Origin: a phage
Sequence record: PX393108.1
Reading direction: 5' to 3' (one strand)
Length of the DNA stretch: 64,000 nt
Every line of letters begins with the position of its first letter. Position 1 is the first letter of the stretch. Below the pieces are notes generated by a model. It was not told where the DNA came from. It saw nothing but the letters and a program-made list of their open reading frames with translations, and searched no databases. Of this stretch, positions 2,985 through 53,821 are shown piece after piece. The position numbers were made by a program, and so were the translations under genes.

Positions 2985-3008
2985 CTGTTTTGTGAAAATT
3001 TTTTGAAA

Positions 3009-3034
3009 TAAAAAAAGGGAGCCCGAAGGCTCCC
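3009..3034 (-). terminator. intrinsic terminator hairpin (GGGAGCC-CGAA-GGCTCCC + U-run) after NTase gene
   Basis: 7 bp GC stem with tetraloop followed by T-run on minus strand. Confidence 0.6.
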
Positions 3035-18564: not shown

Positions 18565-19128
18565 TTATTTATCTAGTTTAGTTATTATAGCTTCTGCGGC
18601 AGCTTTTAGCTTAGATGCAGTGTTAATACGATTTTTAATTTCAGTATACGCATCGCCAAGAACATCAAGGCTATCAGAATAAACACTTACACTATTGCGT
18701 TCGCTATTTGAAATAGAACCTTTAGTTTTACGATCAAAATCGGTGTACACGTCTTGAAGATCACGGGCTGCCTTCTTTGCATCATCCAATGCATCAAGAG
18801 CTTTATTCAAAGCATTAACGTATTTTTTAGTGTCGAACATATTCTTAGAAATTTTAACAGGTGCGCGTTCAGGAGTAGCTAATGCAGATTTAGGAACCTG
18901 AGCGCCAGATGCCAATTTCTTAGAAATTTTGAAAAACGCTTTATTGAATTTATTTTCTTGACTCATCGTAAAAGAACTATTATCGATGTTGTACATTTCA
19001 ATAGCTTTAGCTTTCCACTTAAGAAAATCGCCGCGGTCTTTTGGGTCCAAGTGGAAGAATACTTTAGTAAGATCTGCTTCAGATGGTAATTTTGCTGCTT
19101 CGGTTAAAAATTCGGCATAGGTTTTCAT
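18565..19128 (-). CDS. internal-protein-like capsid-targeted protein (CTS MKTYAEFLTE)
   Basis: 187 aa; N-terminal CTS motif. Confidence 0.6.
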   Translation of the reverse strand: MKTYAEFLTEAAKLPSEADLTKVFFHLDPKDRGDFLKWKAKAIEMYNIDNSSFTMSQENKFNKAFFKISKKLASGAQVPKSALATPERAPVKISKNMFDTKKYVNALNKALDALDDAKKAARDLQDVYTDFDRKTKGSISNSERNSVSVYSDSLDVLGDAYTEIKNRINTASKLKAAAEAIITKLDK

Positions 19129-19216
19129 TTAAAATCCTTGAAATAATTTATCGGTTGGTTATTAATTATTTATTACTTTGTTATTATCCGTAACAGCATT
19201 CTCTATGTGATTCAAA

Positions 19217-19248
19217 CTAAAAACCCCAACCTTTCGGTCGGGGCTAAG
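19217..19248 (-). terminator. intrinsic terminator, copy 1 of a 32 nt direct repeat
   Basis: Minus-strand hairpin CCCCGACC-GAAA-GGTTGGGG followed by TTTTT. Confidence 0.6.
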
Positions 19249-19433
19249 AATGTTATTTGATTTGTTTAGCAGACCAAATGCGGTCTTTGATGATTTTTTG
19301 GATGTCTTCAACATACTCTAGGTCATGAGCATGTGGGTTATCTTTGAAACTATAAGCACGAGCTAGTTTTTGGCCTTCAGTTTTGATTACTAAAAGCTCT
19401 TTAAGGATAGCTTCATATTTAGCGATAATTCCT

Positions 19434-19727
19434 TTAACAATATTTTTTTTCTTGTGCAGCTTTAGGATCTGCTTTAGGAGCAGGTTTACCCGAAGCCTTT
19501 GCAAAAGCAGCACCAGTAGCAACTAAACTTTTCCAGGCCATACTAACCGCATTTCCTGTAAATCCTTCTGCTTTCATGTCGCGAGCAAACTGGAATCGTG
19601 ATTCGTCAGAAGCATCTTTATAGGAATATTTACCCGCTGCAATGGCTGCTTTTGCGACAGCTTGAATTTCGGTGCTAGATGCTTCATTTAACACCGCTTC
19701 ATTTAAAAATTGAGCATATGATTTCAT
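19434..19727 (-). CDS. internal-protein-like capsid-targeted protein (CTS MKSYAQFLNE); frame ends just after an A8 tract
   Basis: 97 aa; CTS motif; late promoter upstream; downstream overlapping ORF 19253-19522 continues in another frame. Confidence 0.6.
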   Translation of the reverse strand: MKSYAQFLNEAVLNEASSTEIQAVAKAAIAAGKYSYKDASDESRFQFARDMKAEGFTGNAVSMAWKSLVATGAAFAKASGKPAPKADPKAAQEKKYC

Positions 19728-19766
19728 CTTATTTCCTGTTTTAATTCGTGATTTAATATACTACTA

Positions 19767-19774
19767 TATTTATA
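19767..19774 (-). promoter_or_regulatory. late promoter TATAAATA
   Basis: Exact TATAAATA on minus strand about 40 nt upstream of the IP-like ATG. Confidence 0.5.
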
Positions 19775-19807
19775 CTAAAAAGCCCCAACCTTTCGGTCGG
19801 GGCTAAG
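19774..19807 (-). terminator. intrinsic terminator, copy 2 of the 32 nt direct repeat
   Basis: Same hairpin plus U-run as 19217-19248, one extra G. Confidence 0.6.
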
Positions 19808-19809
19808 CC

Positions 19810-20110
19810 TTGCGGCAACCTTGTCGGGGTTCCACCTGCTAAGGCAAGTGTTTGTACGAAACGCCGGGATTCGAACCCGGTTATTAAGCAGTTGACGCTA
19901 CTTAATATTTTTAAAAGGCCATATCTCGACCATATCCGAACGTTCCGTCAAAAACGCTACTCGGCTTACGGCAAAGATATTTCCTCGAATCGATAATTCG
20001 GTGCGCCGTTTCTGCTGTGATGTAAGAGGGCATCAACAAATCATAAAGATTTATTAACACAATTCCTTACTCAGGGAACATCAGTCCGACGACTTACCGG
20101 TAGCGACCCG
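19810..20110 (-). ncRNA. putative structured small RNA region (tRNA-like T-arm, no cloverleaf)
   Basis: No ORF of 60 codons or more; perfect T-arm-like CCGGGTTCGAATCCCGG on minus strand; in T4 the small stable RNAs C and D map near the tRNA cluster as I recall. Confidence 0.3.
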
Positions 20111-20115
20111 GTTTC

Positions 20116-20466
20116 TTAATATTCTTTTAAAGCATCAATCTGTTCACGACGTTTACGCCATAAATCAATTGCTTCATACGCAGATTCAGCATTTCGAATT
20201 GGACGGCATTTATATAAAGACTTGTGATTTTGATATTGCGTAGATAACGAAATTTTATCTAAAAGGTCTTTACGTTCAAAGTATTCGTAACCATCTAAGC
20301 CAAATGAACGATTTTTGAGAAATTGCCAATGACCATATTCGTTTTCGACATAAACATAATCCGCGTGTTGATAAAGCAAATTAATTACACGTTCAGAAAT
20401 AACAGTGTCATTGTGATTAAAATAAAATGTTAAATCATGAACTACTAAATAAACATTACCTTTCAT
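20116..20466 (-). CDS. hypothetical protein
   Basis: 116 aa ORF between the ncRNA region and tRNA-Arg. Confidence 0.5.
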   Translation of the reverse strand: MKGNVYLVVHDLTFYFNHNDTVISERVINLLYQHADYVYVENEYGHWQFLKNRSFGLDGYEYFERKDLLDKISLSTQYQNHKSLYKCRPIRNAESAYEAIDLWRKRREQIDALKEY

Positions 20467-20472
20467 ATTTTC

Positions 20473-20548
20473 CTCACTTATAATTGGTCGAGGCAGTAGG
20501 GATCGAACCTACGACCTAGGACTTAGAAGGTCCTTGCTCTTCCTTCTG
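20473..20548 (-). tRNA. tRNA-Arg (anticodon UCU)
   Basis: Cloverleaf folded by hand: anticodon loop CTTCTAA, T-arm GTAGG-TTCGATC-CCTAC, CCA encoded. Confidence 0.85.
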
Positions 20549-20552
20549 AGCT

Positions 20553-20628
20553 ATGCCCCGTAATTGGGGTGACCGATGGGAGTCGAACCCATGACTACGA
20601 GAATCACAATCTCGAGTTCTACCAACTG
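20553..20628 (-). tRNA. tRNA-His (anticodon GUG), discriminator C73, no encoded G-1
   Basis: Anticodon stem-loop CGAGATTGTGATTCTCG; 3' end CCACCCCA like E. coli tRNA-His. Confidence 0.8.
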
Positions 20629-20753
20629 AACTACGGCCACATTAATACCTACTCCAACAATCAAGATGTCTTCACACGAAATTAAGAGAAGAGTGATCAG
20701 TTCAACCCTATAATCGCGTCAAGTAGATATTAATGTGACAGTTGTCACAAATT

Positions 20754-20828
20754 TGGCGGACGTGATAGGATTCGAACCTATAACCAATCGCTTAACAGGC
20801 GATCGCTCTGCCATTGAGCTACACATCC
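20754..20828 (-). tRNA. tRNA-Asn (anticodon GUU)
   Basis: Anticodon loop CTGTTAA; T-arm ATAGG-TTCGAAT-CCTAT; CCA encoded. Confidence 0.8.
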
Positions 20829-20832
20829 AAAT

Positions 20833-20919
20833 TGGTGGGGAGTGATGGAGTCGAACCACCCGAGTCGCAATGACAATGGATTTACAGTCCACACCGCTAC
20901 CTCTACGGGATAACTCCCC
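20833..20919 (-). tRNA. tRNA-Tyr (anticodon GUA), long variable arm
   Basis: 87 nt; anticodon loop CTGTAAA; discriminator A; CCA encoded. Confidence 0.8.
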
Positions 20920-20932
20920 TTAATTCTTAATT

Positions 20933-21007
20933 TGGTGGCCCTGGGTGGAATTGAACCACCATCTGGCGATTATGAGTCGCTTGCTTGAACCTTCCAGCTA
21001 CAGGGCC
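20933..21007 (-). tRNA. tRNA-Ile (anticodon CAU, Ile2/lysidine type; Met not excluded)
   Basis: Anticodon arm GCGACTCATAATCGC identical to E. coli tRNA-Ile2 as recalled; CCA encoded. Confidence 0.75.
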
Positions 21008-21008
21008 T

Positions 21009-21085
21009 TGGTGCTGATTGACGGAATCGAACCGCCGACCTTCTCATTACAAGTGAGTTGCTCTACCTACTGAGCTAAATCAGCA
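21009..21085 (-). tRNA. tRNA-Thr (anticodon UGU)
   Basis: Anticodon loop CTTGTAA; perfect 7 bp acceptor stem; 1 nt from Ile tRNA. Confidence 0.85.
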
Positions 21086-21089
21086 AAAC

Positions 21090-21179
21090 TGGCGGAGGCG
21101 ATAGGATTTGAACCTATGAGTCGCCGGAGCGACTGCCGGTTTTCAAGACCGGTGCATTAAACCACTCTGCCACGCCTCC
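21090..21179 (-). tRNA. tRNA-Ser (anticodon UGA), type II
   Basis: 90 nt; anticodon loop TCTTGAAAA region; long variable arm. Confidence 0.85.
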
Positions 21180-21181
21180 AG

Positions 21182-21255
21182 TCTCCATACAAGGATTTGA
21201 ACCTTGGACCTCCTGATCCCAAATCAGGCGCTCTACCAAACTGAGCTACACGGAG
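21182..21255 (-). tRNA. tRNA-Pro (anticodon UGG), CCA not encoded
   Basis: Anticodon loop TTTGGGA; 3' end lacks CCA; 2 nt from tRNA-Ser. Confidence 0.8.
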
Positions 21256-21265
21256 TAAATTAAAT

Positions 21266-21339
<74 letters not shown>

Positions 21340-21344
21340 AAATT

Positions 21345-21431
21345 TGGTGCGAGAAGTGGGACTCGAACCCACAAGGAAATCATTCCGCAGCATTTTAAGT
21401 GCTGTGCCTTTACCAATTTGACCATTCTCGC
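21345..21431 (-). tRNA. tRNA-Leu (anticodon UAA), type II
   Basis: 87 nt; anticodon loop CTTAAAA; long variable arm. Confidence 0.85.
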
Positions 21432-21432
21432 G

Positions 21433-21505
21433 CTGGGAATAAAGGACTCGAACCTTTGCATCCTGGAATCAAAATCCAGTGCCTTACCAACTTGGCTAAT
21501 TCCCA
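21433..21505 (-). tRNA. tRNA-Gln (anticodon UUG), starts with U1, CCA not fully encoded
   Basis: Anticodon loop TTTTGAT; abuts tRNA-Leu as a dimeric precursor. Confidence 0.85.
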
Positions 21506-26351: not shown

Positions 26352-26803
26352 TATGCCCCCTTAAAGCCAAGAGCTCTTAATCCATCTTCTGTTAGAATTC
26401 TAAATTTTATTCCACGCTTTTCAGCTAAAGCTTGCGCTGCTTTCCATTTGTCAGTATTAACGGAATATGTATAAATTTCATTCATAAATCTTTTCTTCGC
26501 TGCAGTTGTTAGATGTGCTGGTTTAACTGGTGGTTGTGTTTCTTTTTTAGGTTTTATTTCAATAAAAAATTCTTGTCCAGAAGAATCTTTCATCCAAATA
26601 TCCATGAAGTATCTACGTTTTTTCCCTTCTGCATTACAAAAATAAGGAATTACTGCTGTTTCACTACCCCATGCAATAATTTCTGGATTTTTATCTAACC
26701 ATTCAAAAAAGAATTTTTCCCAATTTGATCTATACGTAATTTTTTTAGGGTCACCTCTATATTTTGATATATTTTTAGGAACCCATTTTCCAGAATATGC
26801 CAT
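26351..26803 (-). CDS. 4: gp4 head completion protein
   Basis: 150 aa, T4 size and position. Confidence 0.85.
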
Positions 26804-53011: not shown

Positions 53012-53821
53012 ATGCTTAAAGAACAACTGATTGCTGAAGCGCAAAAAATTGATGCTTCCGTTGCTCTTGATAGTATTTTCGAATCAGTTAATATTTCTCC
53101 GGAAGCAAAAGAAACTTTCGGCACTGTATTCGAAGCTACCGTCAAGCAGCACGCCGTTAAATTAGCTGAATCTCATATCGCTAAAATTGCTGAAAAAGCA
53201 GAAGAAGAAGTAGAAAAAAATAAAGAAGAAGCCGAAGAAAAAGCTGAGAAGAAAATCGCTGAGCAAGCTTCTAAATTCATTGACCATCTTGCGAAAGAAT
53301 GGCTCGCTGAAAATAAATTAGCAGTTGATAAAGGCATCAAAGCCGAACTGTTTGAATCCATGCTTGGTGGATTAAAAGAGCTCTTTGTTGAACACAACGT
53401 TGTTGTTCCAGAAGAATCAGTTGATGTTGTGGCTGAAATGGAAGAAGAGCTGCAAGAACATAAAGAAGAATCAGCTCGTCTGTTCGAAGAACTCAATAAG
53501 CGTGACGCATATATCAATTATGTGCAGCGTGAAGTGGCATTGAGCGAAAGTACTAAAGATCTGACTGAGTCTCAAAAAGAAAAAGTCTCTGCTCTGGTCG
53601 AAGGTATGGATTATTCAGATGAATTCTCAAGTAAATTGAGTGCCATCGTAGAAATGGTGAAGAAGTCTAATAAAGATGAAAGCACTATTACTGAGGGTAT
53701 AAATACTCCTGATACTGAAGCAGCCGGACTGAATTTCGTCACTGAAGCTGTAGAAGATAAAGCTGCACCTGGTGCAGAAGATATTGTAAGTGTATATGCG
53801 AAAGTCGCATCTCGTTTCTAA
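53012..53821 (+). CDS. 22: gp22 prohead core scaffold protein
   Basis: 269 aa, Glu/Lys-rich coiled coil. Confidence 0.95.
   Translation: MLKEQLIAEAQKIDASVALDSIFESVNISPEAKETFGTVFEATVKQHAVKLAESHIAKIAEKAEEEVEKNKEEAEEKAEKKIAEQASKFIDHLAKEWLAENKLAVDKGIKAELFESMLGGLKELFVEHNVVVPEESVDVVAEMEEELQEHKEESARLFEELNKRDAYINYVQREVALSESTKDLTESQKEKVSALVEGMDYSDEFSSKLSAIVEMVKKSNKDESTITEGINTPDTEAAGLNFVTEAVEDKAAPGAEDIVSVYAKVASRF

Follow-up and report, generated by a model that had tools for sequence, protein, structure and literature searches.

The 64,000-nucleotide stretch of phage DNA analysed here over its whole length (sequence record PX393108.1, referred to below as the window) belongs to a Tequatrovirus, i.e., a T4-like phage, and carries on its minus strand a small gene of internal-protein character, in which a run of eight adenines (A8) separates the beginning of the reading frame from its conserved end. 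It is likely that this run is a genuine, heritable A7→A8 allele of a non-essential, internal-protein-like gene, produced by replication slippage at a tract that is hypermutable. The intact form of the gene, found in relatives, encodes 157 amino acids (aa), and the open reading frame (ORF) left in the window encodes 97 aa. The preliminary description of this locus, made from the letters of the window, had placed side by side a sequencing indel, a phase-variable gene and programmed slippage that gives two isoforms. At the level of comparative genomics the phase-variable or hypermutable reading is the best supported of them, since tract lengths from A6 to A9 turn up repeatedly across many haplotypes and three diverged lineages.

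The tract is T8 on the plus strand and hence, as had been described, A8 on the coding strand. Frame 0 runs through it as GAA AAA AAA TAT TGT TAA, so that two sense codons are followed by the stop at 19436-19434, which confirms the earlier placement of the stop three codons past the run; the KYC tail of the 97-aa product is thus read out of frame. An ORF overlapping in another frame had also been noticed and is indeed present, but it comprises 63 codons and not about 68. This +1 frame (AAG AAA AAA AAT ATT GTT...) is open until the TAA at 19255-19253 and in the window is severed from the start codon. The proposal that both frames can be fused holds as well, with the correction that the product has 157 aa and not about 160, and that not every single-base change is suitable: fusion needs one base fewer (A7) or two bases more, while one base more (A9) leads into the third frame and to a 112-aa product, which is annotated in Yersinia phage fPS-65. 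In relatives with A7 the tract corresponds to the codons E93-K94-N95 (GAA AAA AAT). The A8 tract is the sole A/T run of at least eight bases in the 64 kb and does not count as chance background. A/T homopolymers are strongly depleted across the whole window, where six runs of at least 7 and one of at least 8 were observed, vs. ~50 and ~18 expected under a first-order Markov model. Two genes contain seven-base runs within coding sequence: gene 4 (26740-26746), and gene 22 (53214-53220), where the flanking bases again make the context G-A7-T (GAA AAA AAT).

The ancestral state of the gene is indicated by its relatives. Along 520 nt the only difference between the window and Shigella phage SH-2 is A8 in the former and A7 in the latter; alignment shows A7 also in G50 and CrRp10, and each of these three phages annotates a single coding sequence (CDS) of 474 nt, encoding 157 aa. 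Apart from this +1 insertion, the gene of the window is therefore intact. With tblastn the 157-aa protein was found in 512 phage records; the matches remain full-length even in Mosigvirus-like phages, where identity falls to 72%. The profile of family phrog_2280 is matched by the 157-aa protein from end to end, whereas the match of the 97-aa ORF is limited to positions 1-90 of the 178 in the profile. The part encoded after the tract is under strong purifying selection: the ratio of nonsynonymous to synonymous substitution rates (dN/dS) between lineages is 0.02-0.09, at synonymous divergence (dS) of up to ~1, and its protein sequence is more conserved than that of the N-terminal part. In the selection analysis the downstream frame was intact in all 19 alleles after in silico repair of the tract. 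A downstream frame lacking conservation in relatives, which the preliminary description had named as speaking against its reading, is thus not what is found, as this is the best-conserved part of the protein. More distant homologues have the N-domain alone in common. In Klebsiella phage KpV477 (Jiaodavirus; positions 1195-1431 of the extracted locus, L021) the homologue is annotated as 78 aa and consists of the N-domain only, followed by ~490 nt without an annotated gene; it may be another truncated or decayed copy. A homologue from a Logan contig (P0031) has an in-frame duplication of four residues in the linker, KADPKADPK, and a length of 161 aa, so the linker tolerates length change, and short direct repeats there are also prone to slippage.

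Variation of tract length is not confined to the window. In an 84-nt search, 11 of 336 records spanned 84 or 85 nt instead of 83, and seven of these 11 length-variant records were read directly; A8 together with an annotated 97-aa CDS is present in SF2-1, AUBRB02, PYps55T, ph0021, G28, and teqhal, and fPS-65 has A9 with a CDS of 112 aa. The isolates in which A8 is annotated as a 97-aa CDS come from China, Brazil, Germany, and Denmark. Alleles other than A7 were found in 2 of 60 records of an evenly spread sample, and in a spread tblastn sample the gene was split in two in 3 of 44 close relatives, so that non-A7 alleles make up ~3-7% of sampled records and in-frame A7 ~93-97%. The protein collection contains truncated forms from three diverged lineages, and both directions of change, A6 and A8, are represented: the A8 forms end in ...QEKKYC or ...QEKKYRQRNYF, and the A6 forms continue as ...QEKI(S/L)LKEL.... 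All truncated forms located on contigs of at least 95 kb end at the A-tract. The exact 97-aa product of the window was recovered in 44 blocks of public assemblies, metagenome scaffolds included, within varied gene neighbourhoods, and a KATQEKKYC variant on 9 contigs; A8 alleles of independent isolates have linked single-nucleotide polymorphisms (SNPs) in common. An exact 30-mer search for A8 in IMG/VR gave zero matches; this database yielded 9 related loci, and the 8 with a detectable tract are all A7.

Nucleotide haplotypes point to repeated origin of these alleles. Among 29 loci, 17 A8 alleles are distributed over 13 distinct haplotypes, and an A8 allele is often nearer to an A7 allele than to another A8 allele. 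Three haplotypes exist in two tract states: the window and locus L029 (both A8) are otherwise the same as SH-2 (A7), locus L027 (A8) as G50 (A7), and fPS-65 (A9) as locus L012 (A7). The genome of L029 is distinct from that of the window: the flanks show 20 mismatches, another gene lies upstream, and the sequence comes from an independent run. The 63-codon downstream frame is intact in 17 of 17 A8 alleles.

T4 internal proteins carry a capsid-targeting sequence (CTS), are processed by gp21 and are injected, and one of them, IPI*, inhibits the GmrSD restriction enzyme. They constitute a diverse anti-restriction set with only the CTS in common (PMC3012670), in which residues 4 and 7 serve targeting and residues 8 and 10 processing (PMC9026906). 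The first residues of the protein studied here, MKSYAQFLNEA, align with MKTYQEFIAEA of T4 IPII and IPIII, and Y4, F7, L8, and E10 are all present. A gp21-type L/I-x-E motif is recognizable as L8-N9-E10 with A11 next, and a second one, VLNE then Ala at residues 12-15, as L13-N14-E15 with A16 next; both are sequence matches to a candidate cleavage signal. The earlier label of an internal-protein-like, capsid-targeted product thus gains support from the CTS alignment, and the 157-aa protein is probably packaged in the capsid. Beyond the propeptide, no similarity of its mature region to IPI, IPII, IPIII, or IpIV could be detected; the mature regions of the known internal proteins are mutually unrelated too, and homology there does not strictly define the class. 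Identity with T2 IpIV was considered and rejected, as the two have the same length of 157 aa but unrelated sequences.

The AlphaFold2 model of the 157-aa protein is of moderate confidence (mean predicted local distance difference test score, pLDDT, 74.7). It comprises a disordered N-terminus, three helices at 18-71, a low-confidence linker rich in Lys, Pro, and Ala at 76-87, and a C-terminal helical hairpin at 88-154 (helices 88-124 and 131-154). The tract codons E93-K94-N95 sit at the start of this hairpin, and because of this position the frameshift is predicted to delete one whole domain. Foldseek against the PDB returned generic helical hairpins only, all at E > 3, and no fold match; Pfam gave no match for the 157-aa protein, and PHROGs only the family of unknown function phrog_2280.

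On these grounds the following course of events may be proposed. The ancestral gene encodes a 157-aa protein built of a T4-type CTS, a three-helix N-domain, a disordered Lys/Pro/Ala linker and the conserved C-terminal hairpin. During DNA replication, slipped-strand mispairing at the longest homopolymer of the region, i.e., the classical Streisinger mechanism, would have introduced the +1 insertion at the first turn of the C-terminal domain, leaving a 97-aa product that consists of CTS, N-domain and linker and has presumably lost the C-domain. With its CTS preserved, the shortened protein is still expected to be packaged and to undergo cleavage by the prohead protease. The A6, A8, and A9 variants have arisen independently many times, and the tract is a recurrent mutational hot spot; the variants would be tolerated because the gene does not appear to be essential.

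Homopolymers are classic sites of indel error, and within the gene the window differs from SH-2 by the tract alone, so the additional A could be an artefact of sequencing or assembly in a phage that is truly A7. This explanation, one of those offered originally, is quite improbable. The same 474-nt haplotype with A8 occurs in the distinct genome L029, obtained in another run, the exact product recurs in the 44 assembly blocks, and the SNPs linked to A8 are found across independent isolates. The 7-base run in the essential gene 4 was used as a control tract and queried with a synthetic 8-base form, which was present in 0 of 503 records, vs. at least 11 of 336 at the A-tract (Fisher p = 4e-5). 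Between the window and SH-2 there are zero gaps over 26.7 kb of structural genes, and the A-tract is the only homopolymer indel in a conserved coding region; given the invariant control tract and the lack of any other coding homopolymer indel, generic homopolymer error is unlikely. (A further difference from SH-2 lies at 2999-3016 of the window, where adjoining T/A tracts are T6/A7 vs. T5/A6, with a compensating change in the A-run; since the gene that ends at 1953 likely starts only downstream of these tracts, the polymorphism is probably intergenic.) Programmed recoding, by +1 ribosomal frameshifting or by transcriptional slippage evolved to provide short and long isoforms in the manner of dnaX tau/gamma, is scarcely credible, although the layout has features that invite it. 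The A-run is slippery; a -1 slip on A AAA AAT in A7 phages would give exactly ...QEKKYC with a stop three codons on, as for the gamma product of dnaX, and in A8 phages a +1 slip or the deletion of one A from the mRNA would give exactly the wild-type sequence. Runs of 8 A have been documented to slip elsewhere; transcriptional slippage in bacteria, however, is as a rule appreciable only from ~9 A/T, which counts against recoding at A8 (PMC1088944). The two-frame layout is moreover not conserved, the sampled records being for the most part plain in-frame A7, and since this majority state is in frame, recoding is not needed to make the protein. A Shine-Dalgarno-like stimulator was not found upstream of the tract, the downstream fold (-13.4 kcal/mol, z = -1.7, with 11 of 200 shuffles as good) is not significant, and the A6 and A9 alleles enter the third frame, which has no conserved product. 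The suggestion of two programmed isoforms thus finds no support; low-level leakiness is possible, in that RNA polymerase or ribosome slippage on A8 might restore some full-length protein. That the frameshift is the first step in the decay of a pseudogene, in a lineage that is losing the gene, is very doubtful. It would agree with the absence of the gene from T4 and T2, with the varying content of the locus among relatives and with the N-domain-only homologue annotated in a Klebsiella phage, but a second lesion is present in 0 of 17 A8 alleles, the gene matches an intact allele known from SH-2, and purifying selection on the family, above all on the C-terminal part, is strong. As judged from sequence, nothing has been lost from the promoter, ribosome-binding site, CTS or N-domain either, so a product is presumably still made.

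A possibility, though an unlikely one, is that the tract constitutes an adaptive contingency locus, at which reversible A7/A8/A6 switching produces mixed progeny injecting either the two-domain protein or the N-domain alone. Such a locus would pay if the C-domain counters or triggers a defence that varies between hosts, and it would extend, not replace, the explanation by replication slippage. It is favoured by the recurrence of A6 and A8, i.e., of both directions, in three diverged lineages, by the intact downstream frames of all A8 alleles with no other disabling mutation on contigs of at least 95 kb, by the three identical haplotypes in two tract states, by the presence of the A8 allele in metagenomes, by the precedent of agt and rIIA in T2/T4 and by the known anti-restriction role of T4 internal proteins (PMC3012670). 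However, codon bias fully accounts for conservation of the tract (usage of AAA 91%, GAA 85%, and AAT 92%): 61% of two-fold codon columns are invariant, and three in a row are expected with p ~0.23. Selection for the tract itself was accordingly rejected, as the invariant GAA AAA AAT does not exceed the synonymous background or codon bias. The essential genes 4 and 22 also contain A7 runs, hence a 7-base run alone is no sign of selection, and the protein has no fold or Pfam match and no known function, partner or trade-off. Recent frameshifts predict intact downstream frames equally well. The polyphyly of A8 and the 17 of 17 intact frames are as compatible with frequent reversion as with recent one-way events, and the frequency of variants and the absence of other lesions fit recent, mildly deleterious recurrent mutation and reversible switching equally well. 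The strongest form of this idea, a selected and reversible bet-hedging switch, with the C-terminal hairpin as effector or target in a host-defence arms race and the ~3-7% polymorphism arising from fluctuating selection, is rather unlikely; if true, an injected phage protein would for the first time be tied to a contingency locus by population-genomic evidence from nature. Several points weigh against a replication-slippage allele in a non-essential gene, even though it is the preferred explanation. An assembly error at this one tract of the window record is formally possible, and the contrast with gene 4 may be inflated if submitters corrected frameshifts in essential genes by hand. Dispensability of the gene is putative, being suggested by the existence of truncated alleles and by its absence in T4 and T2. 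Finally, ~3-7% of non-A7 alleles is more than would be expected from a rate of about 1e-4 to 1e-3 under strong purifying selection, so that weak selection, a host-dependent advantage or hitch-hiking may act beyond neutral noise.

The hot spots described by Streisinger in the lysozyme gene e and in the rII A-runs of T4 are sites of single-base additions and deletions, the frequency of which rises with run length. Those were laboratory mutants scored by phenotype, whereas here the alleles are fixed in natural isolates and metagenome contigs. In a recent preprint Gomez, Barrick and Waters demonstrated experimentally that A-runs of at least 6 in T2, T4, and T6 undergo reversible ±1 frameshifts, at a rate of about 1e-4 to 1e-3 and with read-level frequencies of ~3e-4; reversion at the agt and rIIA tracts was 1,000 to 10,000 times the frequency of point mutants, and the sites were named phage contingency loci (10.1101/2025.10.21.683753). 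The locus of the window has in common with agt (A9) and rIIA (A6) the genus, an A-run of at least 6 within an ORF, ±1 slippage frameshifts and recurrence; as there, an accessory gene plausibly involved in the interplay with host defence is affected. The events at the A-tract may be reversible. The preprint, however, established rates, reversion and a fitness trade-off by experiment, while the present evidence is comparative polymorphism among isolates and metagenomes, and since the gene is absent from T4 and T2 it cannot be contained in the T2/T4 tables of that work. With regard to the features that define a contingency locus, a mononucleotide repeat of at least 6 lies in the coding region (A8 in the window, A7 in most relatives) and ±1 change at the repeat is elevated at the between-genome level; selection maintaining the repeat is not indicated, codon bias being sufficient. 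By structure and recurrence the locus is best filed with the phage contingency loci.

Recoding at the A-runs of dnaX (tau/gamma) and of insertion sequence (IS) elements proceeds by programmed -1 frameshifting or by transcriptional slippage (PMC1088944, PMC5009743). The locus resembles these systems in that a stop lies close behind the A-run in the shifted frame and that slippage would drop a C-terminal domain; it differs in that the in-frame state is the norm, stimulatory elements were not found and the out-of-frame state is a minority allele. The poly-G tracts of Campylobacter phages and of bacterial phase-variable genes are longer (G8-G13), switch at much higher rates and have documented phenotypes. 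With them the A-tract shares a homopolymer whose length switches an ORF and heterogeneity in the population, but it is a short A7 run that codon bias explains. As to the product, the likeness to T4 IPI, IPII, and IPIII and T2 IpIV extends to the beginning MK(T/S)Y..F(I/L).E with Ala next, i.e., the propeptide, to a late-promoter consensus, to a small, Lys-rich protein and to variable presence among phages; the mature region is unrelated, the locus lies between rnaC and e.8, and packaging, cleavage, injection and a role against host defence are putative here.

The gene forms part of a cassette whose features are listed in Table 1. A 651-nt query around it matches 425 phage records. It is located between the stable-RNA genes rnaC/rnaD and e.8, just downstream of a cluster of 11 tRNA genes and the rnaD/rnaC homologues, and is followed by its 187-aa paralogue and the genes e.8-e.1; at the homologous position in T4 and T2 it is absent. 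The rnaD/rnaC unit ends at the upstream hairpin, which is also the 5′ boundary of the cassette, and the records of G50 and fPS-65 annotate a terminator at the matching place. The octamer of the putative late promoter occurs 21 times in the window, vs. 9.1 expected, and the fPS-65 record has a predicted late promoter annotated at the homologous position. An AGGA ribosome-binding site lies ~7 nt upstream of the ATG (at 19727, minus strand). As the downstream hairpin begins 7 nt past the stop of the full-length frame, the transcription unit fits a gene of 157 codons.

Table 1. Features of the A-tract gene and its cassette in the window.
Feature	Position	Strand	Basis or content
A8 homopolymer (T8 on the plus strand), site of the +1 insertion	19443..19450	-	Sequence and alignment of relatives
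Truncated 97-aa ORF, ends ...AAQEKKYC	19434..19727	-	Contains CTS, N-domain, linker, start of C-helix, KYC tail
+1-frame continuation, 63 codons (N95-K157) and stop	19253..19444	-	Encodes the conserved C-terminal helical hairpin
CTS-like propeptide, codons 1-10, MKSYAQFLNE then Ala	19698..19727	-	Alignment with T4 IPII, IPIII and T2 IpIV
Upstream intrinsic-terminator hairpin, AGCCCCGACCGAAAGGTTGGGGCT then T run	19781..19804	-	Terminator scan and sequence
T4 late-promoter consensus TATAAATA, 39 nt before ATG (putative)	19767..19774	-	Consensus match only
Downstream intrinsic-terminator hairpin	19222..19245	-	Terminator scan; nearly identical to the upstream hairpin
Adjacent intact paralogue, 187 aa, N-terminus MKTYAEFLTEA... 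(CTS)	18565..19128	-	Full-length phrog_2280 match

Only some relatives carry the 187-aa paralogue, and A8 occurs among relatives both with and without it, with no evident association. The paralogue and the A-tract protein belong to the same phrog_2280, yet past the propeptide their pairwise similarity is barely detectable. The two bracketing hairpins have the common form AGCCCCGACCGAAAGGTTGGGG C/T T, and the gene upstream differs among relatives, being the 116-aa ORF, a GIY-YIG endonuclease or a T5orf172 protein; such repeated hairpins may act as recombination points for cassette exchange. In the window the upstream gene is the 116-aa ORF (phrog_3355; 20116-20466, minus strand), which lies between tRNA-Arg and rnaD and is present in T2 (KMC23_gp136) and absent from T4. 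The homologues of rnaD (species 2) and rnaC (species 1), at 19810-20115 on the minus strand, are well over 90% identical to T4 over the alignment. Rfam reported nothing in 19100-20500, with the rnaD/rnaC stretch unmatched even at E ≤ 1, and these RNAs appear to be without a curated Rfam family. The eleven tRNA genes (20485-21505, minus strand) are those for Arg, His, Asn, Tyr, Met, Thr, Ser, Pro, Gly, Leu, and Gln, vs. eight in T4; in comparison with T4 the set has no tRNA-Ile call and adds His, Asn, Tyr, and Met.

The frameshift allele is probably real and in itself fairly ordinary, and its main value is that of a natural example of a recently described phenomenon and of a correction to annotation. 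In the window and in many deposited Tequatrovirus genomes the 97-aa "hypothetical protein" and the orphan ORF downstream of it are halves of one 157-aa gene, and such halves should be annotated as a frameshifted allele. The occurrence of A6-A9 alleles on many haplotypes, metagenomes included, lends natural-population support to the experimental claim that A-runs of T-even phages are hypermutable switches, and the case concerns a probable injected protein, a class to which the anti-restriction factor IPI* also belongs. Should the switch be adaptive, it would tie phage bet-hedging to the arsenal of injected proteins; if it is not, the tract would still illustrate clearly how a dispensable gene can harbour a mutational hot spot.

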